Below, in pieces: positions 1,316 to 56,621 of a DNA stretch of 64,000 bases (positions are counted from its first letter, which is position 1; every line of letters starts with the position of its first letter). Location of the stretch: NCBI GenBank assembly GCA_016186645.1, contig JACPLF010000007.1, positions 126,651-190,650 of the forward strand. The letters run 5' to 3'. A program made the translations under genes and the position numbers. This DNA comes from Candidatus Levyibacteriota bacterium (GTDB lineage: Bacteria > Patescibacteriota > Microgenomatia > Levybacterales > UBA12049). Below the pieces are notes generated by a model. That model had not been told where the DNA came from. It did not search any database and worked only from the letters and a program-made list of their open reading frames with translations.

Positions 1316-3060
1316 TTATTTTCTTCAATAATTGACAGAAGTGCTTCTTGAGGAATAGAGATTTTTGCCTGAGAGATCATTCGGGATTTTCCTTTTTTTT
1401 GAGCTTCCAATAATTTATCTTTTCTTCTTCTGTCCCCGCCACTCATCTTAGCTAAAACATCTTTTCTAAAAGGCGGGGTTTCTTCCCGAGTTACAATGTT
1501 TCCGTCTACAACTCCTTGGATAATTTGTCTGAATTGCTGGCGCGGCAGCGAGTTTTTAAGTCTTTCTGCTTTTTGTCTTGCTACATGAATTGCCTCATCT
1601 TTATATGCAAGCTCTGATAAAATATCAATTGCAATATCATTTACTTTTAGCTCAATTTTCGCCAAATCTGCAACTTTGTAAGAAGTCAATTCGTAATCTA
1701 GACTTGCATAGCCTTTGGATTTGGATTTCAGATCGGATGAAATTCCCCTAATAAACATGCTAAAAGGCATATCATAAGAGAGCGCTGCATAACTTTCATG
1801 ATAATTTAGGTCTAATAAGCTTCCTTTTCGGCTCTGGCAGATGTTCATAATCGGACCTACATAATCTTTAGGCGTATAAACTATCAATTTCATATAAGGC
1901 TCTAGTATTGTTCCATCCTCTCTCTTTTCATATAAGACGTGGGGCATAGTTAATAAAATTTCCAAATTAAATTCCTGCTTTATTCTTTCTTTGACAATCT
2001 GAGCATGTAAAAGTCCCAAAAATCCTACCCTAAAACCGGATCCTAAATAAGACGAATATTCTTCCGTATAAGTTAGGGCAGTGTCGTTAAGAGTCAATTT
2101 TGCAAGCGATTCTTTTAAATAGGCATAATCATTTGTACTTTTTGGATAGACTCCAAAAAACACCATCGGTTTGGGAATCTTGTATCCGGGCAGCGGTTCA
2201 AACTCCGAACTCTGAGCTCCGAACTCTGAACTCCGGACAGTGTCTCCGACACGCACTTTTCGGATATCTTTAACTCCTGTAATAACGTAACCAATTTCAC
2301 CTGTTGTTATTTCATTTGAAGAAACTAAATGGGGGGAGAAATATCCCAAATCTGTAATTTCTGACTCGATATTATTTTGATAAAACTCGATTTTTTCTCC
2401 TTTTTTTACTTGCCCATCAACTATTCTCACATACGCAACTACCCCGCGGAATTCATCATAAACAGCATCAAAAATAAGACCGCGCAGGGTCTTATCTTTT
2501 TCCCCTTTTGGCGCAGGAAGTCTCTTTACAACAGCTTCCAAAAGACTTTCTATATTTTTTCCTGTTTTTGCCGAAATATAAATTATTTCTTCTTCTTTAA
2601 ATCCAAATGTTCCAGCTAATTCTTTGCTTGTTGATTCAATCTGTGCGCTCGGCAAATCTATCTTGTTAACAACAGGTATCATGACTAAATTTTGTTTTTT
2701 GGCTTCTCTGAAATGCGCGACAGTTTGGGCTTGAATTCCCTGAGTTGCATCTACTAATAATATTGCCCCCTCACAAGCCGCCAACGTTCGGGAAACTTCA
2801 TAAGAAAAATCAACATGACCCGGAGTATCTATCAAATTCAGAATGTATAATTCAGAATTAAGAATATATTTCATTCTTACCGGGGCGAGCTTGATTGTTA
2901 TTCCCCGGCGTCTGCTGATTGGATTTTGGTCCAAAAACTGTTCTGTTATTTTTTCCTTGGGGATTGTTTTTGTAATTTCCAAAAGTCTGTCTGCAAGAGT
3001 GGATTTGCCATGATCTACATGAGCAATAATCGCAAAATTCCTAATATTTTTCTGTTCCAT
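1312..3060 (-). CDS. lepA: elongation factor 4 (LepA), translational GTPase
   Basis: N-terminus MEQKNIRNFAIIAHVDHGKSTLADRLLE (G1 motif AHVDHGKST), DTPGHVDF, NKID motifs; about 582 aa. Confidence 0.9.
   Translation of the reverse strand: MEQKNIRNFAIIAHVDHGKSTLADRLLEITKTIPKEKITEQFLDQNPISRRRGITIKLAPVRMKYILNSELYILNLIDTPGHVDFSYEVSRTLAACEGAILLVDATQGIQAQTVAHFREAKKQNLVMIPVVNKIDLPSAQIESTSKELAGTFGFKEEEIIYISAKTGKNIESLLEAVVKRLPAPKGEKDKTLRGLIFDAVYDEFRGVVAYVRIVDGQVKKGEKIEFYQNNIESEITDLGYFSPHLVSSNEITTGEIGYVITGVKDIRKVRVGDTVRSSEFGAQSSEFEPLPGYKIPKPMVFFGVYPKSTNDYAYLKESLAKLTLNDTALTYTEEYSSYLGSGFRVGFLGLLHAQIVKERIKQEFNLEILLTMPHVLYEKREDGTILEPYMKLIVYTPKDYVGPIMNICQSRKGSLLDLNYHESYAALSYDMPFSMFIRGISSDLKSKSKGYASLDYELTSYKVADLAKIELKVNDIAIDILSELAYKDEAIHVARQKAERLKNSLPRQQFRQIIQGVVDGNIVTREETPPFRKDVLAKMSGGDRRRKDKLLEAQKKGKSRMISQAKISIPQEALLSIIEENN
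2202..2237. repeat. 14-nt tandem repeat (ctccgaactctga x2 plus partial) in-frame inside lepA
   Basis: Direct tandem copies at 2202-2216, 2217-2230 and partial 2231-2237; encodes SSEFGAQSSEFEP on the minus strand without breaking the ORF. Confidence 0.7.
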
Positions 3061-12224: not shown

Positions 12225-12791
12225 ATGAATATTGGATTTGATTTAGATAAAATATTTATTAATTATCCTCCTTTTGTTCCATCAAAAATTATTGATTTAT
12301 TATATAAAGGAAAACCGCGTGCGGAATTGGAATATCGTATACCGTCAAGATTGGAGCAGATTATTAGAATATTCAGCCACCACCCTATATTTAGATCTCC
12401 TATAGCTGAAAACATGAATTATGTTAAAGACTTAGCTTTACAGAATGAAAATAAATATTATCTTATTTCCAGTAGATTCAGCTTTTTGGAGAAAAAAACA
12501 ACAGAACTTATAAAGCGTCTCAGCCTAGATAAAATATTTAATGCGATGTATTTCAACTACAATAATGAACAGCCTCATCTTTTTAAAAACGGAGTGCTAA
12601 AGAAGTTAAAACTTGATATGTACATTGACGATGATTTGCAACTTTTGGAATATCTAGGGAATAAAAATCCTAAAATCAAATTTTTCTGGTTGAATAAGAA
12701 GTTTAGCAGATCATTGAAAAAAAATTTATTTGCTATAAAAAACATTTCGGAAATGTTCACCCCGCACCAAAATGGTGCAGGGTTCAAATAA
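12225..12791 (+). CDS. hypothetical protein, possibly degenerate HAD-like (NT5C-type) hydrolase
   Basis: MNIGFDLDKIF resembles HAD motif I (DxD); YIDDDL resembles motif IV; weak. Confidence 0.3.
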   Translation: MNIGFDLDKIFINYPPFVPSKIIDLLYKGKPRAELEYRIPSRLEQIIRIFSHHPIFRSPIAENMNYVKDLALQNENKYYLISSRFSFLEKKTTELIKRLSLDKIFNAMYFNYNNEQPHLFKNGVLKKLKLDMYIDDDLQLLEYLGNKNPKIKFFWLNKKFSRSLKKNLFAIKNISEMFTPHQNGAGFK

Positions 12792-15069
12792 TATGCTCCT
12801 CTCGGATTTGCTTAATATTTTCCAATGGTGGGCAACATTTTTTTTTGCTGGCGTTATCTTTATTCCCATAACAACTTTGATCTTTCCCAACTTTTTCGAT
12901 AAGGGTTATATTTTTGCGAAAGTTATAGGAATAGCATTAATAAGTTATACAATTTTTGTTTTAGGGTTTTTAAAACTACTTCCTTTTGAAACGCAAAATC
13001 TCTACATAATTCTAGGATTGTTTATTCCTATCAATTTATTGATTGGGAGAAAAAGTAAACTCAATTTCAAGCAGATACTCCCAATAATTATTATAGAAGA
13101 ATTTTTATTCGCAGCAATTCTTTTGTTTTGGTCTTTTATCCATGCCCACCAACCGGACATTCATGGGCTGGAAAAATATATGGATTATGGATTTATAAAT
13201 TCTATTTTAAGAGCTAAGTATTTTCCTCCTTTAGATATGTGGCTTACACCCTACCCTATTAACTATTATTATTTTGGGCATTTAGTAACTGCTGTTTTGA
13301 CAAAGCTTTCATTTCTTTCGTCATCAATTACTTTCAATTTAACGCTTTCAACAATCGCTGCATTTACTTTTACAGGTGCATTTTCAATTGGCGCAAATCT
13401 CCTATATTTTTTAAACAAAAACGGTAAAAATTCGAAATTACCAATAATCGGAGGCATTCTTACTGGACTTATACTAGGTTTTGCAGGAAACCTGCATACA
13501 GTTTATTTATTTTTCAAGCCTTATGAAAATGAAAATCCTGTACCTTTTTGGCAGTTAATCTTTTCTCCTAATACATTTCCAAATAGCTATTGGTATCCAA
13601 ATGCAACGCGCTTCATCGAAAACACTATTCACGAATTTCCAATCTATTCCTCTGTTGTTTCCGATCTGCATGGCCACGTTCTAGACATACCTTTTGTACT
13701 GCTAACAATAGCTATTCTTTTATCAATATTTTTTAGATTTAATAATCAATCCTCAATTCAAAATTTAAAATTCAAAATTCAAAGTGACAATTCAAAATTC
13801 AAAATCTTAAACTTTGAGTTTCCGTTTTTAACTTTTAACTTTTCACTTTTAACTTTGCTAGCATTTTTGCTAGCAATTATGTATATGATCAATGCTTGGG
13901 ACGGAATAATATATTTCTTATTGACAGCAATCGTAATTGCCTATGTCAAGCTAAAGTCAATAATACAAATTTCTCCCCACCAAAGTATTAAGTATTATGT
14001 ATCAAGTATTAAACAATCAAAGTACCTAATACCTACTACTTTATACTTAATACTTATTTTTGTTGGGTTTTTCCTTTTTACTTTACCTTTTAATCTTAAT
14101 TTCAAGCCTTTTGCTTCGGGGATTGGCGTACTTTGTGCGCCAAAATTTCTAACAGACATAGGACAATTTGGACCTTTCCTTTTTGAGCCAGACCATTGCC
14201 AACATTCACCTTTATGGCAATTATTTATTCTATATGGCTTTTTCTATTTTTGGATTTTTGGATTTTTAGTTTTTAAAATTAGAAATTTTTCTCCACCCGA
14301 TATCTTTGTATTGATTCTAATCCTGTTATCCGCTCTTCTTATTATCATTCCTGAATTTATATATGTAAAAGATATTTATCCTGCACACTACAGAGCAAAC
14401 ACCATGTTCAAACTTGTATATCAGTCATTCATGATGCTTTCTATCTCCTCGGGCTATATAATGGTTAGGCTAGTATCAAGTATTAAGTATTACGTATTAA
14501 GTATCGAGAAAAAAATTCTTTATGTCTTATACTTTATACCTGCTACCTTATACTTAATACTGGTATTCTTTTATCCTTATTTTGCGATTAATTCCTACTT
14601 TGGAAATTTAAAAACTTACCATGGTCTTGATGGAACAAGTTATCTTAAGCCACTTTATCCAAATGACTATGAAGCCATTTTGTGGATTAATAAAAACATT
14701 AAAGGACAACCAATTATTCTTGAAGCGCAGGGAGATTCGTATACCGACTATGGTCGCGTATCAGCCAATACCGGACTACCAACTGTTTTAGGATGGACTG
14801 TTCATGAATGGCTTTGGCGCGGAACCTATGATATTCCTTCCCCTCGGATCGAAGAAGTTGCAAAAATGTACGAATCCGATAATTCGAAAGAGATAGAATC
14901 CTTGTTAAAAAAATATAAAGTTTCGCTTATATTTATTGGTGAGTTAGAAAGACAAAAATATCCAAATCTTAATGAGGAAAAATTTCAGCTTTTAGGAAAA
15001 ACTATTTATCAAAAAGGCGATACAAGGATATTCCAGTCGATCACTGAAGAGGACAATCGCCAATTTTAA
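12772..15069 (+). CDS. large polytopic membrane protein (possible GT-C/DUF2298-like), carrying in-frame repeat insertions
   Basis: 765 aa, many TM helices, C-terminal soluble domain; internal tandem repeats and two inverted-repeat insertions (see repeat features). Confidence 0.45.
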   Translation: MVQGSNNMLLSDLLNIFQWWATFFFAGVIFIPITTLIFPNFFDKGYIFAKVIGIALISYTIFVLGFLKLLPFETQNLYIILGLFIPINLLIGRKSKLNFKQILPIIIIEEFLFAAILLFWSFIHAHQPDIHGLEKYMDYGFINSILRAKYFPPLDMWLTPYPINYYYFGHLVTAVLTKLSFLSSSITFNLTLSTIAAFTFTGAFSIGANLLYFLNKNGKNSKLPIIGGILTGLILGFAGNLHTVYLFFKPYENENPVPFWQLIFSPNTFPNSYWYPNATRFIENTIHEFPIYSSVVSDLHGHVLDIPFVLLTIAILLSIFFRFNNQSSIQNLKFKIQSDNSKFKILNFEFPFLTFNFSLLTLLAFLLAIMYMINAWDGIIYFLLTAIVIAYVKLKSIIQISPHQSIKYYVSSIKQSKYLIPTTLYLILIFVGFFLFTLPFNLNFKPFASGIGVLCAPKFLTDIGQFGPFLFEPDHCQHSPLWQLFILYGFFYFWIFGFLVFKIRNFSPPDIFVLILILLSALLIIIPEFIYVKDIYPAHYRANTMFKLVYQSFMMLSISSGYIMVRLVSSIKYYVLSIEKKILYVLYFIPATLYLILVFFYPYFAINSYFGNLKTYHGLDGTSYLKPLYPNDYEAILWINKNIKGQPIILEAQGDSYTDYGRVSANTGLPTVLGWTVHEWLWRGTYDIPSPRIEEVAKMYESDNSKEIESLLKKYKVSLIFIGELERQKYPNLNEEKFQLLGKTIYQKGDTRIFQSITEEDNRQF
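13755..13855. repeat. tandem simple repeats (aattcaaa)n then (ttttaac)n in-frame within CDS
   Basis: aattcaaaatttaaaattcaaaattcaaagtgacaattcaaaattcaaaatc ... ttttaacttttaacttttcacttttaacttt; encodes QNLKFKIQSDNSKFKILNFEFPFLTFNFSLLTL. Confidence 0.7.
13984..14055. repeat. inverted-repeat element (agtattaagtat ... atacttaatact) inserted in-frame, copy 1
   Basis: Termini agtattaagtatt and atacttaatact are reverse complements; a diverged second copy lies at 14472-14562 in the same gene. Confidence 0.55.
14472..14562. repeat. inverted-repeat element (agtatcaagtattaagtatt ... tacttaatact), copy 2
   Basis: Same terminal inverted repeats as copy 1; encodes VSSIKYYVLSIEKK...ATLYLIL paralleling ISPHQSIKYYVSSIKQ...TTLYLIL. 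Confidence 0.55.
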
Positions 15070-16183: not shown

Positions 16184-16781
16184 TATTCGACATTTGAGTA
16201 AACTTTTTTACATTCTCCGATGTTACACTTCCTCCATAAAGAACATATTGGACTTTGTAATTTTTTTTGAAAAATGCAGCAACTTCTTGTGCACTTTCCG
16301 CAGTATCAGGGCGTCCTGTTCCTATTGCATTAATAGGTTCATATGCGACTATAGCGATATCCGAAGGAATCTTTGTCTCGATTCCCTGGACACAAAAAAT
16401 TGGGGCCAAACCATGCTGCTTTGATAACTCCGCTTTTTTAAACAATATTTCATCATTTTCATTAAAATTCGTTCTTCTTTCAGAATGACCAATGAGGACG
16501 TAGTCTGCAAATTCTTTAATCTGCCTTGCAGATACCTCTCCAGTATAGGCACCTTCATCAAAAGGGGAAACATTTTGCGCCCCAATCTTAAATCCTAATT
16601 CATAATTCTTGATTACCGATTCAATTTCAGAAAGAAGAGTAAAAGACGGACATATAATTATCTCCTTATTCATAATTCGTAAATCATAATTCTTAAATCT
16701 CTGAAACCAAAAATCAGCTTCAGAACTCGTGAAATTCGACTTCCAATTAGCCACAATAAAGGTCTTTTTCATATGGTACAA
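16113..16781 (-). CDS. tpiA: triosephosphate isomerase
   Basis: IVANWKSN..., AYEPINAIGTG, LYGGSV motifs; 222 aa. Confidence 0.8.
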   Translation of the reverse strand: MYHMKKTFIVANWKSNFTSSEADFWFQRFKNYDLRIMNKEIIICPSFTLLSEIESVIKNYELGFKIGAQNVSPFDEGAYTGEVSARQIKEFADYVLIGHSERRTNFNENDEILFKKAELSKQHGLAPIFCVQGIETKIPSDIAIVAYEPINAIGTGRPDTAESAQEVAAFFKKNYKVQYVLYGGSVTSENVKKFTQMSNIDGVLVGGASLDAQEFYAIIKNA

Positions 16782-18677
16782 TTACAACATTATACTATGG
16801 ATCAAGACTTTCTAAAAGACTTAAATCAGGAACAACAAAAAGCAGTTTTGCAGACTGATGGTCCGGTAATCATTCTGGCAGGAGCAGGATCTGGAAAAAC
16901 AAGAGTGTTAACGTATAAAGTCATGTATTTAATACAAGATATGAAAATTGATCCCTTCAATATTCTAATGGTAACCTTTACCAATAAAGCTGCTAATGAA
17001 ATGAAAGAACGTGTCCAAAAAATGGGTGCAATTCCGACCGTTGCTACTTTTCATTCTTTATGCGCCAAAATTCTGAGGATTGAAGGAAAACATATAAACC
17101 TTCCTTCGCAATTCGCAATATATGATACGCAAGATAGTCTGGAGGCTATAAAAGAAGCAATGAAAAGGCTGAATATTTCTATAAAAGATTACAAACCGTC
17201 CTCTATTCTGGCGAATATATCGCAGGCAAAAAATGAACTTATCAATGATTCCGAATATTTAAAATATGCAAGAGGGAATTTCCAGGAAAAAGTTGCAAAG
17301 ATTTATCCTGTGTATCAAAAAATTTTAGCAGAAAACCATGCTCTTGATTTTGACGATCTTCTTTCTAAAACCGTGTTATTGTTTGAAGAAAATTTAACAA
17401 TTCTTGAAAAATATCAAGATCGTTTTCGTTATATCTTGATAGATGAGTACCAGGATACAAATCGAGCCCAATATATCTTGACTAAAAAATTAGCCAAAAA
17501 GTGGAATAATGTGTGTATTGTTGGAGATTTTTCCCAAAGCATATATAGCTGGAGAGGTGCGGATTTTACCAATCTATCCCGTTTCAAGGAGGATTTTAAA
17601 AATACAAAAACTTTTTCTCTTTCCCAAAACTATCGATCTACACAAAAAATTTTGGATAGCGCCTCATCGGTAATATCCAAAAATACAACTCACCCAGTAT
17701 TAAATCTTTGGACGGAAAATCCGAACGGTGATGAAGTTGTTATTTTTGAAGCACAAAATGAGCAGCAAGAAATAGAATTCGTAGTAAATACAATAGGAGA
17801 ATTTAGACTACAAGAAAAGAAAGATTTTAAATTTTCCAATAATGCTGTCCTGTATAGGACTAACGCTCAATCGCGAGTTTTGGAAGAAGTTTTTTTACAT
17901 AATAGTATTCCGTATGTCCTAATTGGGGGTACACGGTTCTACGAAAGAAAAGAAATAAAAGACGTACTCGCTTATTTGAGAGCATTGGATAACAAAAAGG
18001 ATAAGATATCTTTAAAGCGCATTGAAAAAATTGGAAAAAGAAAAATGGAGAAATTTCTAGAATTTCAAGAGAAAGTAAACGTCACTCTGGGGAGGTCGAC
18101 GCTTCGACCGACTCCAAAATCCGATTCTGGACAAGCCAGAATGACAACATTAGAACTTCTGGACAAAGTGCTAAATGTAACCGATTACCTATCTTTATAT
18201 GATGACCGTGACGAAGAAGATAGACAAAGACTGGAAAATATTAAGGAACTTCGTTCTGTAGCTTTTGAATTTTCCGATCTTACTAATTTTTTAGAAAATG
18301 TCTCCCTTGTTGAACAAGAATATATGCCGGATCCTTCGGCAAGCTCAGGACAAGCAAAGAAAGATGCTGTAACTCTTATGACACTACATGCAGCTAAAGG
18401 TCTTGAATTCCCATACGTATTTATGATCGGCATGGAAGAAGGACTTTTTCCACACTCTCGCTCATTAATGGAGAAGAATGAACTTGAGGAAGAAAGAAGA
18501 CTCTGCTATGTAGGAATGACTAGGGCTCGGAAAAGGCTCTTTTTAACCTATGCTAGAAGAAGAATATTCTTTGGTCAAAAAATTTCAAATATCGTTTCCA
18601 GATTTATTTTGGAACTTCCTGAAAATGTAATTGAACAAAATATTTCCTTAACTAACAATTATGAAAGCCTTAACTAA
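16773..18677 (+). CDS. uvrD: ATP-dependent DNA helicase UvrD/PcrA
   Basis: Walker A LAGAGSGKTRVLT, DEYQDTN, helicase motifs throughout; 634 aa; contains two in-frame hairpin-repeat insertions. Confidence 0.85.
   Translation: MVQLQHYTMDQDFLKDLNQEQQKAVLQTDGPVIILAGAGSGKTRVLTYKVMYLIQDMKIDPFNILMVTFTNKAANEMKERVQKMGAIPTVATFHSLCAKILRIEGKHINLPSQFAIYDTQDSLEAIKEAMKRLNISIKDYKPSSILANISQAKNELINDSEYLKYARGNFQEKVAKIYPVYQKILAENHALDFDDLLSKTVLLFEENLTILEKYQDRFRYILIDEYQDTNRAQYILTKKLAKKWNNVCIVGDFSQSIYSWRGADFTNLSRFKEDFKNTKTFSLSQNYRSTQKILDSASSVISKNTTHPVLNLWTENPNGDEVVIFEAQNEQQEIEFVVNTIGEFRLQEKKDFKFSNNAVLYRTNAQSRVLEEVFLHNSIPYVLIGGTRFYERKEIKDVLAYLRALDNKKDKISLKRIEKIGKRKMEKFLEFQEKVNVTLGRSTLRPTPKSDSGQARMTTLELLDKVLNVTDYLSLYDDRDEEDRQRLENIKELRSVAFEFSDLTNFLENVSLVEQEYMPDPSASSGQAKKDAVTLMTLHAAKGLEFPYVFMIGMEEGLFPHSRSLMEKNELEEERRLCYVGMTRARKRLFLTYARRRIFFGQKISNIVSRFILELPENVIEQNISLTNNYESLN
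18086..18146. repeat. hairpin repeat element family A (ggtcgacgcttcgacc + gattctggacaagccagaatgaca) in-frame in uvrD
   Basis: Near-identical to 54802-54858 in guaA (shared gactccRaaatcgattctggacaagccagaatgacaa); two stem-loops; encodes GRSTLRPTPKSDSGQARMTT. Confidence 0.7.
18329..18356. repeat. repeat element family B (ggatccttcggcaagctcaggacaagca) in-frame in uvrD
   Basis: 29-nt near match, about 3 mismatches, to the dnaG copy at 50347-50376 in reverse orientation; encodes PDPSASSGQAKK. Confidence 0.6.
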
Positions 18678-19662
18678 TCACCCATTACAATCTGCTGCGT
18701 GGGGTGAATTTAGAAAAAAAACTGGAATAAAAGTAATAAAAATTAATAGAACCCAAATAACAATTCACAAGGTTCCTCACACACCCTGGACAATTGGCTA
18801 TGTCCCAAAAGGTCCGCTTCCAGACAAAGAAATGATTTCAGAACTTAAGAGAATCGGGAGAGAGAAAAAATGTGTGTTTATTCAGCTGGAACCAAATGTA
18901 TTAATTGAAAATTCTAAATTGAAAATTGAAAATTTAGGTCTTAAGCCAGCCGCTCATCCTTTGTTTACAAAATATACTTTTGTGTTGGATTTAACAAAGT
19001 CCGAAGTGGAATTGCTGAAAGAAATGCATCCAAAGACTAGATACAACATAAAAGTAGCGCTCAAACACGGTGTTAAAATTGTTCAGGATAATTCGAATGA
19101 AGCTTTTGAAACCTATTTAAAATTGACAGAAGAGACAACAAGAAGACAAGGTTTTTATGCGCATACAGAAAAATACCATAGGCTAATGTGGGAAACATTA
19201 AAAAATGAAAAATTAAAAATGAAAAATGAAAAATTGGATACTGATAAACTTACTGCTCATCTCTTATTGGCTAAGTATAGTCCAAACTCTCAACTCTCAA
19301 CTTTCAATTCTCAACTCGTTCTGGCTGCTTGGATTTTGTTTGTTTATAAAGATACCCTTTATTATCCATATGGCGCATCAAGCAGTTTACATCGGGAAAC
19401 AATGGCATCAAATCTAATAATGTGGGAAGCAATAAAGTTTGGAAAAGAATTAGGTCTTAAAAAATTTGACATGTGGGGAGCCTTAGGGCATGATCCTTCT
19501 ACAAATGACCCTTGGTATGGATTCCACAAATTCAAACAAGGATATGGGCCAAAACTTACTGAATTTGTTGGAAGTTTCGATCTGGTAATAAATCCGTTTT
19601 TTTATGAGATGTATAAAATAGCAGACAAAATTAGGTGGGCACTTCTGAAAATTAAAAAATGA
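18661..19662 (+). CDS. FemAB-family peptidyltransferase (peptidoglycan interpeptide bridge formation)
   Basis: 333 aa, FemABX/GNAT-like fold signatures (...YYPYGASSS...MWEAIKFGKELGLKKFDMWG); carries three in-frame simple tandem repeats. Confidence 0.55.
   Translation: MKALTNHPLQSAAWGEFRKKTGIKVIKINRTQITIHKVPHTPWTIGYVPKGPLPDKEMISELKRIGREKKCVFIQLEPNVLIENSKLKIENLGLKPAAHPLFTKYTFVLDLTKSEVELLKEMHPKTRYNIKVALKHGVKIVQDNSNEAFETYLKLTEETTRRQGFYAHTEKYHRLMWETLKNEKLKMKNEKLDTDKLTAHLLLAKYSPNSQLSTFNSQLVLAAWILFVYKDTLYYPYGASSSLHRETMASNLIMWEAIKFGKELGLKKFDMWGALGHDPSTNDPWYGFHKFKQGYGPKLTEFVGSFDLVINPFFYEMYKIADKIRWALLKIKK
19201..19235. repeat. (gaaaaat)n tandem repeat in-frame in FemAB gene
   Basis: aaaaatgaaaaattaaaaatgaaaaatgaaaaatt encodes KNEKLKMKNEKL; related (ttgaaaa)n tracts at 18916-18935 and 33526-33562 and in intergenic DNA at 45826-45856 and 53825-53856. 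Confidence 0.65.
19286..19317. repeat. (ctctcaa)n tandem repeat in-frame in FemAB gene
   Basis: aactctcaactctcaactttcaattctcaactc encodes NSQLSTFNSQLV. Confidence 0.65.
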
Positions 19663-33222: not shown

Positions 33223-33847
33223 GCCTCATACAGTATTGGAAGAAAAGCTTTGGAAGAAAGGTTTTATTAATGTTGTGGGCATTGATGAAGCGGGAAAGGG
33301 ACCATGGGCCGGGCCGGTAACTGCTGGCGCTGTACTTATTCATTCTAAAAAACAGGTTGTAAAAACTGTTCGCGACAGTAAGCTGATGACGAAGTTACAA
33401 AGAGAAAAAGCTTTTGAAAAAATTATTAAAAAATCTTCAGGATTCGGAATTGGAATTGTCAGCGAACAAGAAATAGATAAGATTGGTATTCAAAAAGCAG
33501 TAAAAAAAGCAATGTTAATCGCTTTAAAAAACTTAAAATTGAAATTTAAAATTAAAATATCCTATCTTCTCGTCGATGGATCCAAGACTATACCCCTTAG
33601 AAAAAAGAATGCTAAAAGAATTTTAAGAGGAGGGCTTTATCATTATTCTATATCCGCAGCATCGGTTCTCGCAAAAGTAACGAGGGACGAATTAATGAAA
33701 AAAATGTCTAAGCAATATCCGAACTACGGATTTGAAAGACATGTAGGATATGGAACAAAACTGCATATGGAAAAACTTAAGACGCATGGGTTTTCCCCTA
33801 TTCATAGAAAGTCCTTTGCTCCAATAAAAAACATGCTCAATGTCTGA
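33209..33847 (+). CDS. rnhB: ribonuclease HII
   Basis: GIDEAGKGPWAGPV active-site motif; contains an in-frame (ttgaaaa)-type repeat at 33526-33562. Confidence 0.85.
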   Translation: MQIIKPHTVLEEKLWKKGFINVVGIDEAGKGPWAGPVTAGAVLIHSKKQVVKTVRDSKLMTKLQREKAFEKIIKKSSGFGIGIVSEQEIDKIGIQKAVKKAMLIALKNLKLKFKIKISYLLVDGSKTIPLRKKNAKRILRGGLYHYSISAASVLAKVTRDELMKKMSKQYPNYGFERHVGYGTKLHMEKLKTHGFSPIHRKSFAPIKNMLNV

Positions 33848-36506: not shown

Positions 36507-36785
36507 ATGGATAATCAAAATAAAATAACATCTATCTTATTTCTTCTTAAAAAAAAGAAAATACTTATTGGAGTACCATTGCTTCTGCTTTCTGTCGGAG
36601 TAATTTATGTTGGGCTAGTGCGATTTGGAGTTATCAAAGATCCTTTCCCTCTTCCTAATATACCTTTTCTTCAAACAGTCCCACAAGTTTCTATAAAAAC
36701 AGAATACAAAAATCCTTTTGATAAAAAAACCCAGTACGTAAATCCATTTGACACTTATAAAAATCCTTTTGTAATTGCAAAATAA
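36507..36785 (+). CDS. small membrane protein with C-terminal NPFD repeats, coupled to the giant protein
   Basis: 92 aa; one TM; C-terminus KNPFDKKTQYVNPFDTYKNPF; TAATG overlap with the next gene. Confidence 0.35.
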   Translation: MDNQNKITSILFLLKKKKILIGVPLLLLSVGVIYVGLVRFGVIKDPFPLPNIPFLQTVPQVSIKTEYKNPFDKKTQYVNPFDTYKNPFVIAK

Positions 36786-39553
36786 TGATAATAAGTAAAA
36801 TTTTAACATTGAACCCTATTAAGACATTACTTCTGGCATTGGCTGCGATGTTTTTATTATTTCTCGTAACAACTTCTGTTTTTTCACAAAGCCCAACAAT
36901 CCAACCAACAACTGCTACAGGACCGTCTCTTAACCTTGCTTTTCCCATAGAAGAATTGGGCGCATGCAAGAGTCTGGAAGAATGTAGCAATTATTGTCAG
37001 GATCCTGTTCACCAAAACAGTTGTACTAATTTTGCAAAGAAAAATGGATTCTATCAGGATGACCAAACAGCCTATGGAGATGATAAATTTTATCAGGATG
37101 TAAAAGAGGAATTAGGATGCGATACGCACGAATCTTGTTTTAACTTTTGTTCAGAGCCTGCGAATTTTGACACATGCGAATCCTATGCCAAAAGAAATGA
37201 AATACCAGGCGGCTATGTCGGAGAACCGGATAAGCCTGAATATTTAACCATTGCTAAGCAAGTTTTAGGTTGTGATTCACCTGTAAGCTGCTCAAATTTC
37301 TGCGATGATCCCGCAAATGCTGATAAATGTTCTAGCTTTGCTGATCAAGTAGGACTTTTAGGCGGAAATACTCAAGAAGGTCCTGGTGGATGTCAGACTC
37401 CCGGCACTTGCGGAGCATATTGTTCTGATCCTGCAAATTATGTGGAATGTTCTAAATTTGCTCCGGGAGGGGGTAATTTTGCAGGACCAGGCGGGTGTAA
37501 TAGTGAAGCAACATGTCGAAGTTATTGCGATCAAAATCCTGCTAATTGCCGAAGTTATGCTCCCGGCTCAAGTGGGGCATATGGGACTTTTAATTGTGTC
37601 GAAGGTCAGACTCATGGACCAGGCGGACTTTGTACCAATGTGAACGTTATGGCTTTGGCTGCTGCCTGCGTTGGAGCTGGTAAATTTTGGGATGGAACTT
37701 CCTGTCAGGATACCGCTCCTGTAGGTATATCTCCAGAACTGCCAAGTGCGCATTTTGAACAAAGACCGGAAATGGGCAATTGCTCAACTCCTGGTCAATG
37801 TTATGATTATTGTAAGGATAATCTTGTGAATGGTGCGAGCGTTTGTCCGGGATTCGATGCTACAGCATCCCGTCCAACCGACAGCTATACACCATATCTA
37901 TATTATACTCCCGGAACTGAGGTTAAATTTGAACCAAAGCCGGAGATGGGTAACTGTGATTCTCCTGGCGCTTGTTATGACTATTGTAAAGAAAATCCCG
38001 ATAAATGCGAAGGATTTGATCCTAAGGCTCCAGTACCAATAGACATTTGGATTCCAAATACTTACTACACTCCTCCTACAGATGGTATCTATTCTACTCC
38101 GCCAACAACCAATTTCTACACAACGCCAATGTACTACACTCCGCCAGTCGGCTCTACTTATACTACTCCTCAATACTACACGCCTGGCACATATTCTACT
38201 CCAAGTTACTATACACCGCCTATAGGATCGAACTATACTACGCCTAACTACTATACTCCTTGGACTAATTATGCGACACCAACCGGAGAGTATCCGACTC
38301 CGACTTATTCAACACCAACTTACTACACTCCTCCTGGTGGATCTAATTACACAACGCCTTACTATTACACTCCCCCTCATTACACAACGCCTTACTATTA
38401 CACTCCCGGCCAAGGTGGCTATGCGTCTAATTACACAACTCCTCCTGCCTATTCAACTCCTCCGCCATATGTAACTCCTCAGTATTACACGCCTTACACC
38501 GGCGGCGGTTATACAACTCCTGTTTACTATACACCGCCTGTTTACACAACCCCAACTTACTACACTCCTCCTGCAGGCTCGAACTACACCAGCCCAAGTT
38601 ATTACACGCCTCCTCCTCCTTATACAACACCAAATTACTATACTCCTGGCACTTACCCAACACCTCCTACTTATACATCTCCTACGGCTTATACGACGCC
38701 TAACTATCCAACTCCTCCATTAGGCAGTAACTATACCTCCCCTAGCTATTATTCGCCAGCAAGCTATCCAACACCAACTTATTACACACCAGGTTTTTAC
38801 CCAACACCTTATTATTACACGCCTTATTCAACACCCTCCTATCACACTCCTCCTGAAGGATCAACCTATACCAGCCCGACTTACTACACACCATATTCAA
38901 CGCCAAATTACTTTACGCCAACGTACTATTCACCTTCTTACTACACGCCTGGCGGAACCTACACAAGTCCTTATTATACTCCTGGAAGCGGTTACACATC
39001 CCCAACCTCAAATTATACAACTCCATCAACTAGCTATACTTCTCCATACTACAGTCCTTACGCAAGTCCATCATATTACACACCCTCAGACCCGAATTAT
39101 ACAACGCCGTCTTATCCAACGCCTTATTCCTATCCTACTCCGGGATCAACAACTTCTTATCCATACCCGACTCCTGGAACAGGATATTCTTACCCAACGC
39201 CAAGCGGCTATTATTACCCAACCCCATCAGACACTAGTTATCCTTCTCCATATACCGGCTATGCTTATCCAACGCCTGGAACTAGTTATTCTTACCCTTC
39301 GCCAACATACGGCACGCCTTCGGGAAGCTATTATTACCCAACACCCGGATCCGGATCTTATGGCACGCCATCATACGGCACCCCTGAATATCACACACCA
39401 AGCTATGGAACACCTTCAGAAAGCTACGGAACACCGAGTTATGGAACGCCATCGTATGGCACTCCTTCTGATTACCCAACCCCTCCCTTGGGAGTTTCCA
39501 CCTTCAATCCCGGATTATTACAGAATATCTGGAGCTTCCTTATCGGCAGATAA
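36785..39553 (+). CDS. giant secreted protein: seven 4-Cys modules followed by about 500 aa of Tyr/Thr/Pro-rich repeats
   Basis: Signal/TM at N-terminus; repeats of G-C-x4-C-x2-[YF]-C-x2-P-x-N-x2-3-C-x2-[FY]-A; then YYTPP / GSNYT[TS]P repeats; hydrophobic C-terminus. Confidence 0.6.
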   Translation: MIISKILTLNPIKTLLLALAAMFLLFLVTTSVFSQSPTIQPTTATGPSLNLAFPIEELGACKSLEECSNYCQDPVHQNSCTNFAKKNGFYQDDQTAYGDDKFYQDVKEELGCDTHESCFNFCSEPANFDTCESYAKRNEIPGGYVGEPDKPEYLTIAKQVLGCDSPVSCSNFCDDPANADKCSSFADQVGLLGGNTQEGPGGCQTPGTCGAYCSDPANYVECSKFAPGGGNFAGPGGCNSEATCRSYCDQNPANCRSYAPGSSGAYGTFNCVEGQTHGPGGLCTNVNVMALAAACVGAGKFWDGTSCQDTAPVGISPELPSAHFEQRPEMGNCSTPGQCYDYCKDNLVNGASVCPGFDATASRPTDSYTPYLYYTPGTEVKFEPKPEMGNCDSPGACYDYCKENPDKCEGFDPKAPVPIDIWIPNTYYTPPTDGIYSTPPTTNFYTTPMYYTPPVGSTYTTPQYYTPGTYSTPSYYTPPIGSNYTTPNYYTPWTNYATPTGEYPTPTYSTPTYYTPPGGSNYTTPYYYTPPHYTTPYYYTPGQGGYASNYTTPPAYSTPPPYVTPQYYTPYTGGGYTTPVYYTPPVYTTPTYYTPPAGSNYTSPSYYTPPPPYTTPNYYTPGTYPTPPTYTSPTAYTTPNYPTPPLGSNYTSPSYYSPASYPTPTYYTPGFYPTPYYYTPYSTPSYHTPPEGSTYTSPTYYTPYSTPNYFTPTYYSPSYYTPGGTYTSPYYTPGSGYTSPTSNYTTPSTSYTSPYYSPYASPSYYTPSDPNYTTPSYPTPYSYPTPGSTTSYPYPTPGTGYSYPTPSGYYYPTPSDTSYPSPYTGYAYPTPGTSYSYPSPTYGTPSGSYYYPTPGSGSYGTPSYGTPEYHTPSYGTPSESYGTPSYGTPSYGTPSDYPTPPLGVSTFNPGLLQNIWSFLIGR

Positions 39554-39604: not shown

Positions 39605-42115
39605 ATGTTCAAATTCTTCGCGTTACTCTTATTTCTCATTTTTCATTTTCCTGCCTCGCCGCCAGGCGGGTCTTTTTTCATTTCTCCTGTTTCTGCTCAT
39701 TCAGAAGTTGCGGTTATAGAAATGGTGCCTTATGGCTTTGTTCCTTCTGAAACAACTATTGATGTAAATTCAAGTGTAATTTTCATCAATAAAGATAGTC
39801 AACCAAGATGGCCTGCCAGCAATGTCCATCCGACTCATAATATATATCCCGAATTTGATCCAAAAAAACCAATTGAGCCCGGAGAATCATGGGCATTCAA
39901 GCCTAAAAGAATAGGAGAATGGAAATTTCACGATCATAATTTCCCCCATATGAGAGGAGTTTTAACTGTCGTTGATGAAGAAGGTTTTACTTCAGAGGAA
40001 AAAATAGAGTCCCCTTCTTTTGTTACTAAGTTTAAAAATGCAATTAACAATTTCTTTAATCAGATTAAAAACTTATTCGCTAAAAAAGCATTAAATCAAC
40101 AGGTACAATTACCTGATAAAGAAGGGTTCAAAAAACTATCTTATGATGCTCAATCTAAAATACTAGAAAAAATTGCGAGAAACAATGGTGCTTCAAAAGC
40201 TTGGGAATATGTGAAAGATGTTTTCAAAGGAGAAGGAGGATCTTCCGGCAACATTCATGATTTGGCGCATTTATCAGGTCTTTTGATATATGAAAAGAAT
40301 GGCTTTGAAGGAATTAAAGACTGCACTAGTAATTTTGCTTTTGGCTGTTATCATGGTTTTTTAGATACTGCTTTTGCCAAAAATTTGGACCATCTTTTGG
40401 ATGCAGAGAATGCTTGTTTGAAATTAGGCCCTACTAATTCCGGACCTGTTGCAAGCTGCATACACGGAATTGGACATGGAGTTGCTTCTTTTTATTCAAC
40501 GCAGGATTTGGAAAAATCTCTTGTTACCTGCAGGAAATTAAACCAAGGCAATGAATACTGTTTTGATGGAGTATTTATGGAATTTGTCCGCTCCGCGCCC
40601 GATTCATTTTTTAAAAGTAACGATCCCTACTACCCTTGCAACAGCTTGGAGGAAAAATATGGATATTCTTATTCATCTGCCTGCGGAAGAAATCAATCTT
40701 CCCTTTTAATGAGTAGATTTAATATGGGATTTGACGAAGTGGTTGGAATTTGTCTTTCTTCAACATCAAAACCTTTTAAAGAAAGTTGTTTCGACGCTCT
40801 AGGATTTTCTCTTGCTTCTTCTGGAGATGTTAACCAAATAATAGTAGGGTGTCAAAAGATGCAGATATCTGAATATATTAATAAGTGCGCAAAAGCTGCC
40901 GCAGGAGAGTTAGTTTTTCAGGAAATACCCGGATGGCCGGAAAAATCAAAAGAAGTTTGTAATGCATTTGAAAAAAGCGAAGAGTGTTTGCAAAACGTAG
41001 ATAGACTTATTAAGGAATATAACCTTCAAGTCCAAATCAACTTTACCCCAAAAGAACTCAATGAAGATATTAATTTATATGTAAGAAGCCAGATGAAAAA
41101 ATGTTATGAAACGGATGGCAGGGACGGATGCTACAAAGCCGTTGCTGACATATTGTATAGTCAGTTTGGTTTAGCCAAAACTCTTAATGTTTTTAAAGAA
41201 AACGAAGGATATGTAGAAATTTATGCAAGATGTCATGAGACAACTCATTATCTTTCCCGGCTGGAATATGAGAAGCAAAAGAGTATTGCCAAAGTTTATG
41301 CTCAATGTGATTCAACATGTCATGGAGGATGTTACCACGGAACACTTGAGGCATATCTTAAAGAAAAGACAAATGAGACTGGATTTAATCTAGTGAGTCG
41401 ATTTGCTAAAGTTTGCGGAAAACAAAGCGATTATCAGAAGCCTATCGAGTTTAATGAATGTCTTCATGGCATGGGACACGCAGCAATGTTTGTCACAGAT
41501 ATGGAACTTAAACAATCTTTAAAGCTTTGCGATACTATTGCTGATCAAGCGCATAAAGAAAGATGTTATACCGGAGTATTTATGGAAAATTCCTCATCCT
41601 CTACTTCTTTTGATCATGCAAGTATATACATTAAAAAAGATGATCCATTTTATCCATGCAATTCTTTAGAGGAAAAATATTTATCTTTGTGCTGGCAGTA
41701 TCAAAGTTCGTATTTTTCCATTATCAGTCACCAGGATTGGAAAAAAGTAGCAAGTCTTTGCCTGCAAATTCCTAATCAGTATCAAGATCGATGCTTTAGG
41801 ACTATCGGAACAAACCAAGTTGGTTTTACTCAATCTTTAGAAACCATGAAAAAAGATTGTGATCTTATGCCCTCTGAAAATTTTAAAGACATTTGTATTG
41901 CAGGCGTTGTTTCCTCTCTTTCCTATCGTTTTGTCGGAGACATGCGAAAAATGATTGACTTTTGCTCTCTTGTCTCTTCACAAAATAGAGAAAGCTGTTA
42001 CAAACAAATTGGTAATGGAGTTTCTGATTGGGATAGCAACAAAGATGTGGCAAAAAACCAATGTCAAAAAATTCCCGACCCCCAAGGCCAATCTTGGTGC
42101 CTGAGCGCAATATGA
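39605..42115 (+). CDS. secreted protein: N-terminal cupredoxin-like domain (Cys ligand replaced) plus two tandem Cys-paired repeat domains
   Basis: Signal peptide; EWKFHDHNFPHMRGVLTVVDE aligns to the amicyanin/pseudoazurin loop Y-x-C-T-P-H-P-F-M-R-G-K-V-V-V-E with Cys replaced; then two repeat units with CYHGF, CIHGIGHG, YPCNSLEEKY motifs. Confidence 0.55.
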   Translation: MFKFFALLLFLIFHFPASPPGGSFFISPVSAHSEVAVIEMVPYGFVPSETTIDVNSSVIFINKDSQPRWPASNVHPTHNIYPEFDPKKPIEPGESWAFKPKRIGEWKFHDHNFPHMRGVLTVVDEEGFTSEEKIESPSFVTKFKNAINNFFNQIKNLFAKKALNQQVQLPDKEGFKKLSYDAQSKILEKIARNNGASKAWEYVKDVFKGEGGSSGNIHDLAHLSGLLIYEKNGFEGIKDCTSNFAFGCYHGFLDTAFAKNLDHLLDAENACLKLGPTNSGPVASCIHGIGHGVASFYSTQDLEKSLVTCRKLNQGNEYCFDGVFMEFVRSAPDSFFKSNDPYYPCNSLEEKYGYSYSSACGRNQSSLLMSRFNMGFDEVVGICLSSTSKPFKESCFDALGFSLASSGDVNQIIVGCQKMQISEYINKCAKAAAGELVFQEIPGWPEKSKEVCNAFEKSEECLQNVDRLIKEYNLQVQINFTPKELNEDINLYVRSQMKKCYETDGRDGCYKAVADILYSQFGLAKTLNVFKENEGYVEIYARCHETTHYLSRLEYEKQKSIAKVYAQCDSTCHGGCYHGTLEAYLKEKTNETGFNLVSRFAKVCGKQSDYQKPIEFNECLHGMGHAAMFVTDMELKQSLKLCDTIADQAHKERCYTGVFMENSSSSTSFDHASIYIKKDDPFYPCNSLEEKYLSLCWQYQSSYFSIISHQDWKKVASLCLQIPNQYQDRCFRTIGTNQVGFTQSLETMKKDCDLMPSENFKDICIAGVVSSLSYRFVGDMRKMIDFCSLVSSQNRESCYKQIGNGVSDWDSNKDVAKNQCQKIPDPQGQSWCLSAI

Positions 42116-45745: not shown

Positions 45746-45862
45746 CTCCTCCCTCTTACAAAACCACAGGATAATTATATCAAAAGCTAGATTTATAAGT
45801 GTTTTAATGATAAAATTATAGCCAGAAATTAATTTTTAACTTTTAATTTTTAATTTCGTTTA

Positions 45863-45937
45863 TTCCTCTGTAGCTCAATGGTAGAGCGGCGCCCTGTTAA
45901 GGCGAAGGTTAGAGGTCCGAGTCCTCTCGGGGGAGCC
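45863..45937 (+). tRNA. tRNA-Asn (anticodon GTT)
   Basis: tcctctgtagctcaatggtagagcggcgccctgttaaggcga...agaggtccgagtcctctcggggga-g-cca; 5' half matches E. coli tRNA-Asn (UCCUCUGUAG...CUGUUAA); cloverleaf folds with 7-bp acceptor (2 GU), T-stem agagg/cctct; encoded CCA. Confidence 0.8.
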
Positions 45938-45960
45938 AAGGTTGTCTCTCAACTCCGCCC

Positions 45961-53818: not shown

Positions 53819-53865
53819 TATTGTCGTTCAATTTTTCACTTTTCATTTTTCATTTTTAGTTTATG

Positions 53866-55446: not shown

Positions 55447-56621
55447 GAATAGCTTTTCCCCGGATTGGTAACAAAAATATCATGAGGATGACTTTCTGTT
55501 AATGATGCCTGAGTAATTTTGATAAATTTTGCTTTTTTCCACAGTTCCCTTATATTTTTTGCTCCAATATAGTACATCCCTGATTTTATTCCGCCAATTG
55601 CCTGGCCAACCAAATCTTTAACAGATCCCCTTATTGGCACGAGTCCTTCCACTCCTTCTGCAATCAGCACTCTATCTTTGTAATTTTTTCCATGGAATTC
55701 ATCTTCTGATTTTATCAAAGCTCCTTTTTTCATCGCTCCCTCTGACCCCATTCCCCTATATTCTTTGAATTGATAATGTTTTTTTATATTAGAAATTCTT
55801 TGAAACCGAGAGGGAATTTCATTTCGACCAAATGTTACAACTTTTCCCGGAGATTCGAGAGATTGAGCAAAATAACTCCCCATCATAACCGTTGAAGCGC
55901 CGGCAGCCAAAGCCTTCACCATGTCACCTGAATATTTGATTCCTCCATCTGCAATAACCGGAACCCCGAGTTTTTTTGCAATTCTTACACTTTCTAGTAT
56001 TGCTGTTATTTGCGGCACTCCCATTCCGGAAATTATTCTTGTTGTGCAAATCGCTCCGGGCCCCATCCCTACCCGCAGCCCATCCGCTCCAGCTTTGATC
56101 AGTGCTCTTGCTCCATCCGCAGTTGCGATATTGCCTGCAATAACATCGATATTTTTGTAATTTTTTTTGATAAATTTTACAGCGTCTATTACTCCTTTGG
56201 AAAATCCGTGAGCAGAATCAACAACAACTACATCCGCTTCCCCATTTGCCAGAGCTTTTATTCTTTCTTCAAATCCTTTGCTCGCTCCAACTGCCCCACC
56301 AACGAGCAGAGCTCGCCCTGAGGCGGGCGTTTGGGTTTTTTTCACCTTTTTAACTTCAGACGCTTGATTTTCTACAGACAAATTTCTATGAATAATTCCA
56401 ATTCCGCCTAATTTTGCCAGTTCAATTGCAAGTTCAGACTCGGTAACCGTATCCATTGGGGCTGAAACAAGAGGAATAGAAATTTTTATTCTTTTTGTTA
56501 ATTGAGTTGATAAATTTATGTCCTTACGAAGAAAATCACTATAGCCGGGAAGAAGAAGAACATCGTCAAAAGTCAATCCAAATTTAAAGTTTGCCCTGAG
56601 CTTGCCGAAGGGTGGCTCCAT
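55443..56621 (-). CDS. guaB: IMP dehydrogenase-family protein (GuaB-like, no CBS pair)
   Basis: 392 aa TIM-barrel; catalytic-loop region [15 protein letters not shown] (Cys) and GGIKYSGD phosphate-binding motif. Confidence 0.8.

Follow-up and report, generated by a model that had tools for sequence, protein, structure and literature searches.

Heptanucleotide repeats were the most over-represented simple sequence repeats (SSRs) of 5-11 nt in many prokaryotes in the survey of Mrazek et al. (2007), as that work is summarized in two later papers (PMC4679880, PMC4692102), and the same summaries credit it with the proposal that heptanucleotides originate from slippage over a polymerase-contact length. 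Two kinds of dispersed heptamer repeat are closest to the DNA considered here. The prokaryotic heptanucleotide long simple sequence repeats (LSSRs), such as the cyanobacterial short tandemly repeated repetitive (STRR) sequences and GGGAATC and GGGGA(T/C)T of Xanthomonas and Nostoc, are over-represented tandem 7-nt units at many dispersed loci; they tend to have about four units, sometimes form inverted pairs, and differ in length and sequence between related genomes (PMC4692102). The TAACTGA repeats of marine Beggiatoaceae, some Cyanobacteria, and Bacteroidetes occur in 2-6 copies per set at more than 100 loci, and the stop codons of the unit limit the place and orientation in which a set can overlap a gene (PMC4679880). 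Traits of both kinds recur in a 64,000-nt stretch of DNA (hereafter the window: contig JACPLF010000007.1 of GenBank assembly GCA_016186645.1, positions 126,651 to 190,650) from a groundwater Candidatus Levybacteria organism with a tiny genome, in which three heptamer arrays lie within a single gene of the FemAB family.

We find that these tracts are probably heptanucleotide SSRs of the known bacterial class, produced by slippage-type amplification and selected for permissive loops and frame-preserving lengths, and that they belong to an A/T-rich, highly unit-diverse population of arrays characteristic of Levybacteria/Microgenomates. Membership is of the general class only, and of no named family (STRR1-3, TAACTGA, or GGGAATC). 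Head-to-tail 7-nt units, an excess of unit length 7, and many dispersed loci are all present, whereas the intergenic predominance and the one or few units of the named families are not, as 193 of 223 arrays lie in open reading frames (ORFs) and 97 units are in use. The gene and its three arrays, the latter delimited by Tandem Repeats Finder (TRF), are as follows.

18661-19662, plus strand: host gene, a FemAB-family peptidoglycan bridge-forming transferase of 333 aa (ORF, PF02388, and PDB matches).
18903-18934, plus strand: heptamer array 1 at FemAB indel site 1, 4.6 copies of AATTGAA, 84% matches (TRF).
19201-19234, plus strand: heptamer array 2 at FemAB indel site 2, 4.9 copies of AAAAATG, 92% matches (TRF).
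19285-19317, plus strand: heptamer array 3 at FemAB indel site 3, 4.7 copies of AACTCTC, 84% matches (TRF).

The ORF at 18661-19662 matched Pfam PF02388 over both subdomains (E = 1.5e-35, 123 bits against a cut-off of 24) as well as PDB entries 6snr and 1lrz, its AlphaFold2 model had a predicted template modeling score (pTM) of 0.80, and its product was 100% identical to protein P0001 of a Candidatus Levybacteria metagenome-assembled genome. The original prediction, made from the letters of the window, had described three translated tandem tracts in this gene and proposed that they be checked with TRF and against orthologs. TRF returned period-7 arrays of 4.6-4.9 copies at all three places; the predicted positions held except for the start of the first tract, which lies 13 nt upstream of where it had been put. 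All three arrays are in frame and translated as LIENSKLKIENLG, KNEKLKMKNEKL, and NSQLSTFNSQLV, respectively (array 1 peptide, IENSKLKIENL; array 3 peptide, NSQLSTFNSQL), and the translation holds the peptides that had been quoted.

We scanned the window for lag matches and compared it with first-order Markov-chain randomizations, in which dinucleotide frequencies are approximately kept. Period 7 gave eight arrays at a score of at least 12 compared with 0.0 in randomized sequence; at the same score, periods 4-6 and 9-13 gave none, periods 8 and 15 gave one each, and period 14, a harmonic of 7, gave four, which makes the excess specific to a 7-nt period. The lineage sample consisted of 80 loci around FemAB orthologs in Levybacteria/Microgenomates assemblies (1.33 Mb) and then eight more loci from close relatives. 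It represents the relatives of one FemAB gene, all of them metagenome assemblies in which low-frequency alleles are invisible, and genes in the relatives' loci were called crudely as longest ORFs. The lag-match scan of this sample found 122 period-7 arrays, whereas the remaining periods between 4 and 15, with the harmonic 14 set aside, yielded 25 in total. Across the scans (1.33-1.47 Mb), counts were 122-187 for period 7, 4-7 for period 6, 10-19 for period 8, and 1-8 for period 9, and TRF on 1.47 Mb returned 151, 77, and 14 arrays of periods 7, 14, and 21 compared with 3, 21, and 19 of periods 6, 8, and 9. Period-7 copy number in the TRF set had a median of 4.6 (interquartile range 4.3-4.9), and array length in the lineage sample peaked sharply at 31-33 nt. 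Density in the relatives ranged from 0 to 4.9 arrays per 10 kb, one very short locus excepted, being highest in the closest relatives and near zero at GC-rich loci. No period-7 peak was found in two AT-rich controls, Staphylococcus phage K and Borrelia lp54. The genome-wide habit that had been predicted thus holds lineage-wide by these scans of Levybacteria/Microgenomates loci.

A minor class of period-8 arrays, 10-21 in number compared with 122-187 of period 7, had a total length of about 29-36 nt. Examples are found in the window at 14235-14267 and at L081 10256-10291, L003 10238, L022 893, and L030 10272, and include (CAATTACC)4.5 at FemAB site 1 and (TGGATTTT)4 in a DUF2298 membrane gene. 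Their similar total length may indicate that total length, rather than copy number, is held constant.

The 223 arrays comprised 97 different canonical units, A/T-rich with one or two G/C per unit. Since units vary from array to array, what the arrays have in common is their period and length rather than a motif, and 97 units among 223 arrays define neither one motif nor a mobile family. The single A/T heptamer habit, (TTGAAAA)n/(GAAAAAT)n, of the original prediction is ruled out by this diversity, the window alone holding more than 10 different heptamers. About 87% of the arrays were wholly inside ORFs, in DNA that is ~93% coding, so arrays are only mildly depleted from genes. Because so many units are in use, and because intergenic arrays exist, these data show that the periodicity arises at the nucleotide level and not at the protein level, with coding context acting afterwards. 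The arrays are therefore what had been anticipated, SSRs of DNA-level origin that are tolerated in frame and translated within genes.

The coding context has left clear marks on the arrays. The consensus unit contained a cyclic stop in 36% of arrays on the coding strand compared with 72% on the antisense strand. Positions at which a perfect repeat would place an in-frame stop made up 4% of array positions but 24% of all mismatches to consensus, and outside these stop-avoiding positions, unit identity to consensus was 95%. In array 1, the odd unit AATTCTA stands exactly where a perfect repeat would read TGA, and in array 2, the odd unit AAAAATT (G>T) removes an in-frame TGA. The hydropathy of array peptides correlated with that of their flanks (r = 0.31, p = 1e-4). 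When ORF disruption was sought at the 223 arrays in assembled sequences, none was found to be broken. Five candidate frameshift-disrupted genes were rejected: three were intact ORFs missed by the crude gene caller, one (L006) was a gene junction, and one (L030) is presumed to be likewise. At L006 11553-11584 (TCTTAAA, plus strand), the array holds the stop codon of a 98-aa ORF and a 190-aa ORF starts directly after it; L030 11855-11886 has the same unit and layout. By synteny with L081/L082, the genes at these junctions may be a signal-peptidase-like gene and a methyltransferase gene. As the arrays are intragenic and translated, we see selection as a filter on site, orientation, stops, and triple-unit steps.

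The sites at which arrays are tolerated are shared among orthologs. In 35 aligned FemAB orthologs (65-80% identity), the three tracts corresponded to three indel hot spots in the first two-thirds of the protein, and none of the 35 was truncated at an array site. In the AlphaFold2 model, the tracts matched three dips in the predicted local distance difference test (pLDDT 60, 60, and 63), with site 1 in a short surface helix (dip at residues 81-90), site 2 in a loop, and site 3 at a beta-hairpin tip (pLDDT 63); comparison with PDB structures placed site 2 where staphylococcal FemA/FemX insert a coiled-coil arm. Orthologs carried at these sites either nothing, a GC-rich element, or peptides (NWKLEIGNWK, SNFKFQISNL, SQLSTLNSQ, KVESGKWKVEK, QKSKVKSQK) that their DNA shows to be other heptamer arrays, or occasionally octamers. 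The proposed comparison with FemAB orthologs therefore found site peptides that are repetitive at the nucleotide level, with other heptamer units. The same pattern of shared sites and differing units was repeated at three sites in DUF2298 orthologs, and the array in lepA maps to a loop extended by 4 aa relative to Aquifex LepA (2ywe).

Recurrence at shared structural sites in FemAB and DUF2298 could also be read as selection on the protein, with 7-residue-periodic peptides kept as loops, linkers, or amphipathic helices, such as a lysine-rich mini-arm at the FemA arm position. In line with this, site 2 lies at the position of the helical arm of staphylococcal FemA/FemX, KNEKLKMKNEKL is identical in four of five lineages with 10 of 12 positions identical in all five, and peptide hydropathy matches the surroundings. 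The tandem repeats of Borg elements, which create new disordered protein regions (PMC9879509), offer a likeness, being fast-evolving, generated locally in ORFs, and a source of low-complexity peptide. Nevertheless, intergenic arrays share the period and length of coding ones, the nucleotide repetition (95% unit identity outside stop-avoiding positions) is far above what the peptide needs, many orthologs lack the segment or have a GC-rich element instead, and the modeled segments are low-confidence loops. We consider it quite unlikely that selection on the peptide accounts for the arrays.

Length differences at the FemAB sites mainly preserved the reading frame. Among anchor-matched proteins of a 144-protein FemAB set, segment lengths were quantized, with successive values 7 aa apart, equal to 21 nt or three units. 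Site 2 showed one peak at 9 aa and another at 16 aa (in another sub-lineage, 7 to 14), while lengths ran through 4, 11, and 18 aa at site 3 and through 13 and 20 aa at site 1. In one 90% cluster, FemAB proteins that were 94% identical differed by exactly 7 aa at site 2, and between loci L088 and L089 (93.1% identity over 8.8 kb), the sole indel longer than 1 nt was one of 21 nt inside the site-2 array. Length polymorphism between close relatives is thus present, as the original prediction would have it. A scan of metagenomes with the exact site-2 flanks for polymorphism in strains identical to the window gave no match, and P0001 forms a singleton cluster; the comparisons above accordingly draw on close pairs of other lineages. 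Over deeper distances, the site-2 array of the window was identical in four lineages and equal in copy number in five, among which 48% of synonymous codons elsewhere in the FemAB gene differ pairwise. Between L008 and L018, the site-1 units changed from the AAATCTC type to AAATCAC in all four copies with no change in length, which is concerted evolution.

The original prediction had further raised the possibility that the tracts are contingency (phase-variable) loci, in which single-unit slippage would switch FemAB and the other host genes by frameshift. Because 7 is not divisible by 3, gain or loss of one unit would indeed shift the frame, and the length polymorphism at site 2 fits this idea. 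There is a precedent in neuO of the E. coli K1 phage CUS-3, whose variable-number tandem repeat (AAGACTC)n is likewise a coding 7-nt unit with three phases and frame-dependent full length (PMC13001214). The neuO repeat, however, is located 5' in an accessory gene, comprises 3-53 perfect copies, and is hypervariable, with 65.6% of genomes OFF (PMC13001214), whereas the Levybacteria arrays are short (median 4.6 copies) and interrupted (84-92% matches in the three tracts), and their hosts are housekeeping genes (FemAB, guaA, lepA/EF4) and the DUF2298 gene rather than surface, variable, or accessory ones. Moreover, they are always in frame: none of the 223 arrays interrupts its ORF, none of the 35 aligned orthologs is truncated, FemAB segment lengths peak 7 aa apart, and the relatives that are 93% identical differ by 21 nt, or three units. 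Some are also stable over deep divergence, site-2 copy number being constant across lineages saturated at synonymous sites. In assembled sequences, where low-frequency alleles are invisible, the claim of contingency loci is not borne out, and we regard it as extremely improbable.

Beyond the FemAB gene, TRF and the lag-match scan together found at least 14 heptamer arrays in the window, of which at least six are in the DUF2298 membrane gene (12772-15069). These arrays and the period-8 array among them are listed below.

2201-2235, minus strand: heptamer array in lepA/EF4, five copies of AACTCCG (plus-strand unit), encoding RSSEFGAQSSEF (TRF, Pfam).
13746-13856, plus strand: heptamer cluster in the DUF2298 membrane gene, AAAATTC/AATTCAA followed by TTTTAAC, with other units at the site in orthologs (TRF, Pfam).
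13983-14056, plus strand: inverted pair (AAGTATT)n/(TACTTAA)n in DUF2298, forming an imperfect hairpin (TRF; RNA fold z = -5.1).
14235-14267, plus strand: period-8 array in DUF2298, 4.1 copies of TGGATTTT, of the minor period class (TRF).
14472-14561, plus strand: second inverted pair in DUF2298, (AGTATTA)n/(TTATACT)n, with the unit of the pair at 13983 (TRF; RNA fold z = -4.4).
39627-39649, no strand assigned: short heptamer array, ATTTTTC-like, of about three copies at the 5' end of ORF 39605-42115 (TRF).
45829-45856, no strand assigned: intergenic heptamer array, four copies of TTAATTT, ending 7 nt upstream of tRNA-Asn (TRF).
53831-53857, no strand assigned: intergenic heptamer array between convergent genes, 3.9 copies of ATTTTTC, the complement of the array 2 unit (TRF).
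55068-55134, minus strand: inverted pair (ATGAGAA)n/(ATTTCTC)n in guaA (GMP synthase, GATase domain) (TRF, Pfam; RNA fold z = -4.0).

The predicted wider habit, including the DUF2298 gene and two intergenic sites, is therefore present and exceeds what had been listed, as lepA, guaA, and ORF 39605-42115 also carry arrays. The tract named in rnhB (33526-33562) is not a heptamer repeat but is irregular, with a TRF period of 13 or 6 and not 7. Because the array at 45829-45856 ends 7 nt before the tRNA-Asn (GTT) gene at 45864-45938, the sole tRNA gene in the window, it overlaps the expected position of its promoter. Tandem repeats of periods 18 and 15 at 38346-38545 and 38771-38814 fall in ORF 36785-39553 (922 aa, GC 0.41); they are ordinary in-frame protein repeats, rich in Thr, Pro, and Tyr, and are unrelated to the heptamer arrays. 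The inverted pairs at 13983-14056 and 14472-14561, 490 nt apart in DUF2298, use one unit (AAGTATT/AATACTT) where orthologs have other units, a pattern suggestive of ectopic conversion from one array to another or of a unit spreading within the genome.

Inverted pairs bear on whether the arrays act as nucleic-acid elements, either as hairpins selected for roles in translation, mRNA decay, or termination or as shape-read sites contacted every 7 bp. Arrays have inverted partners more often than expected (18% compared with 5.6% in mismatched controls), and three strong hairpins lie within ORFs of the window, at 13978-14060 (z = -5.1), 14468-14565 (z = -4.4), and 55062-55140 (z = -4.0). The 31-33 nt length mode is alike in coding and intergenic arrays, periodicity and a near-identical site-2 sequence have been kept across deep divergence, one unit was altered in all copies with length kept (L008/L018), and one intergenic array sits next to a tRNA gene, with another found where two genes converge. 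In the FemAB gene itself, arrays 2 and 3 form an inverted pair around a conserved beta-strand, array 3 being the decayed partner of array 2. In L001, the units of this pair, GAAAGTT and AACTTTC, are exact complements and fold with z = -3.7, while in L002 and L009 the units are complementary; the L002 fold (z = -1.2) is not significant. Against this reading, the FemAB pair in the window no longer folds (z = -0.6), ~82% of arrays have no inverted partner, many orthologs have no array at the site, and 97 unrelated units are hard to reconcile with a sequence-specific binder. Single arrays fold no more than periodic controls do (-2.36 compared with -2.51 kcal/mol); self-hairpin or quasi-palindromic units were rejected, as neither this folding energy nor unit self-complementarity (19% compared with 10-13%) was distinctive. 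Strong nucleotide constraint on the site-2 array was rejected as well, since once codon bias (AAA/AAT/GAA) is allowed for, its extra synonymous conservation is weakly significant at p about 0.01. On balance, we think it unlikely that the arrays as a population are functional nucleic-acid elements.

A further class of in-frame insertion shares the indel hot spots of the heptamer arrays. Its members are rich in GC, against a genome of 35% GC, and are translated as motifs such as SGQARMT, PELVSGS...MLKLVQHD, and RFAQGK. In the window, they are found at 18080-18140 and 18326-18360 in a UvrD/PcrA-like helicase ORF (16773-18677), at 50342-50377 and 56589-56619, and in guaA as the peptide CHSGLSRIDSGVTSFPRMTE, and the GC-rich core GCTCAGGACAAGC occurs five times compared with 0.6 expected. 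Similar segments are present at FemAB site 1 in L009, L012, L024, L044, and L083, and they explain several of the indels between close relatives. At site 2, P0128 and P0027, which are 94% identical proteins, differ by replacement of the heptamer array with a GC-rich element (KSQKSKVKSQKL compared with RCHPELVSGSRYSRIEMPKRVRHDNF), and in L083 (alignment A2, columns 270-326) and L044, GC-rich elements are nested within the heptamer arrays of FemAB site 1. This nesting recalls cyanobacteria, in which small dispersed repeats are nested in heptamer arrays. The candidate explanation that arrays are footprints of a GC-rich mobile element with a 7-bp target duplication was rejected, as the insert in L083, a single case, adds no unit.

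The heptamer arrays might themselves be the repeated arms of small mobile elements that insert in frame, resembling miniature inverted-repeat transposable elements (MITEs) or Rickettsia palindromic elements. The latter are short repeats that insert in frame into conserved, essential genes at surface-exposed, permissive sites and are translated as extra peptide. Some arrays are inverted pairs around a short spacer, as in MITEs, one unit occurs at two sites of the DUF2298 gene (13983 and 14472), and identical units are 2.4-fold commoner within than between genomes. That sharing nonetheless amounts to 4.5% within a genome and 1.9% between genomes, and there is no family consensus among the 97 units in 223 arrays, whereas the Rickettsia elements have a defined palindromic consensus of ~100-150 nt compared with ~32 nt of local heptamers without shared sequence. 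In addition, the FemAB pair flanks a conserved protein beta-strand and not an element-internal spacer, changes are 21-nt steps within an array and not gain or loss of a whole element, and the one nested insertion seen (L083 compared with the window at site 1) lacks a 7-nt target duplication, though this is a single case. An origin as mobile elements is very improbable.

For the preferred reading as slippage-born SSRs filtered by selection, we propose four steps. A short local heptamer would be amplified in 7-nt register, most likely by strand slippage or misalignment during replication or repair. Selection would then sort the arrays in a gene-dense genome (~93% coding), and the survivors would be arrays at membrane-segment boundaries, at the tips of hairpins, and in loops on the surface, oriented so as to meet fewer stops and carrying a point change wherever a perfect repeat would give an in-frame stop. 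Genes would show length changes of three units only (21 nt, 7 aa), because 7 and 3 share no factor. Finally, translation of the array in each of its three phases would yield a low-complexity peptide with 7-residue periodicity, and misaligned pairing may keep the array's units alike over time. The arrays would then be passengers close to neutrality rather than switches.

Several observations weigh against this account. Slippage itself is inferred from patterns in the DNA, and births of arrays within genes would need frameshifted intermediates or multi-step events because a two-unit seed cannot gain three units in one slip. The narrow copy-number mode is also found in intergenic arrays and is not predicted by selection for frame; a difference in length between intergenic and coding arrays, expected from frame quantization, was not seen, the median being 31 nt in both. 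The enrichment of complementary arrays within 120 nt, about 3-fold over mismatched controls, and the 25-30 bp imperfect hairpins that such pairs form in ORFs go beyond plain slippage. At site 2, eight of nine codons are identical in all five lineages compared with 36 of 178 elsewhere, which hints at constraint. Pairs of loci at 81-89% identity show a mixed indel spectrum in which heptamer steps are not dominant; a general indel spectrum led by 7 or 21 nt was rejected, as it holds for the closest pair only and GC-rich elements contribute equally at 81-89% identity. Slippage and selection do not account for the choice of a 7-nt unit, for a mode of ~4.6 copies, or for the inverted pairs, which leaves room for a functional or dedicated-mechanism reading. 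A lineage-specific molecular ruler may write ~32-bp, 7-bp-periodic tracts and sometimes their complement, or the arrays may be maintained DNA/RNA elements or exapted peptide modules, and to these together we give a small but appreciable chance. If true, an uncultured phylum would possess a dedicated process that generates repeats and thereby remodels core-protein loops.

Our literature search found no report of heptamer repeats in the Candidate Phyla Radiation (CPR)/Patescibacteria. What is new is the setting and the outcome: a very small CPR genome of 35% GC, extreme diversity of units, and arrays that are overwhelmingly intragenic and translated. If the density of the window holds genome-wide, an assumed genome of ~1 Mb would contain a few hundred arrays. 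The arrays amount to a natural experiment on insertion-tolerant protein sites and supply lineage-specific loop peptides and length variation in 21-nt quanta. They also call for caution when CPR proteins are annotated or aligned, since NFKFQISN, KNEKLKM, and similar low-complexity inserts are born of repeats.

Heptamer repeats, hitherto described as an intergenic feature of large or GC-rich genomes and of cyanobacteria, are here spread through core genes in a CPR lineage that is ultra-small and AT-rich, and they are translated. The intragenic units of Borg repeats are reportedly multiples of 3 nt, in arrays that can be long; in Levybacteria only triple-unit steps stay in frame, because the unit is 7 nt. 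In the TAACTGA repeats, one conserved heptamer recurs, chiefly in 5' untranslated regions, and is proposed to be the binding site of a post-transcriptional regulator (PMC4679880), whereas Levybacteria arrays have no common unit and are mostly intragenic. LSSR/STRR repeats have one or few defined units per genome, often G-rich, are biased to intergenic DNA and rarer in coding DNA, and have been described mainly in large or GC-rich genomes and cyanobacteria (PMC4692102); by contrast, Levybacteria arrays use 97 A/T-rich units, are 87% in ORFs, and belong to very small genomes with 35% GC. In Xanthomonas and Nostoc, the four-unit preference has been attributed to G-quadruplexes (PMC4692102). This cannot be so in Levybacteria, and the account cannot be general, because a four-to-five-unit mode occurs here with A/T-rich units. 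The question of why the unit is 7 nt can be tested in a second, very different group of bacteria.

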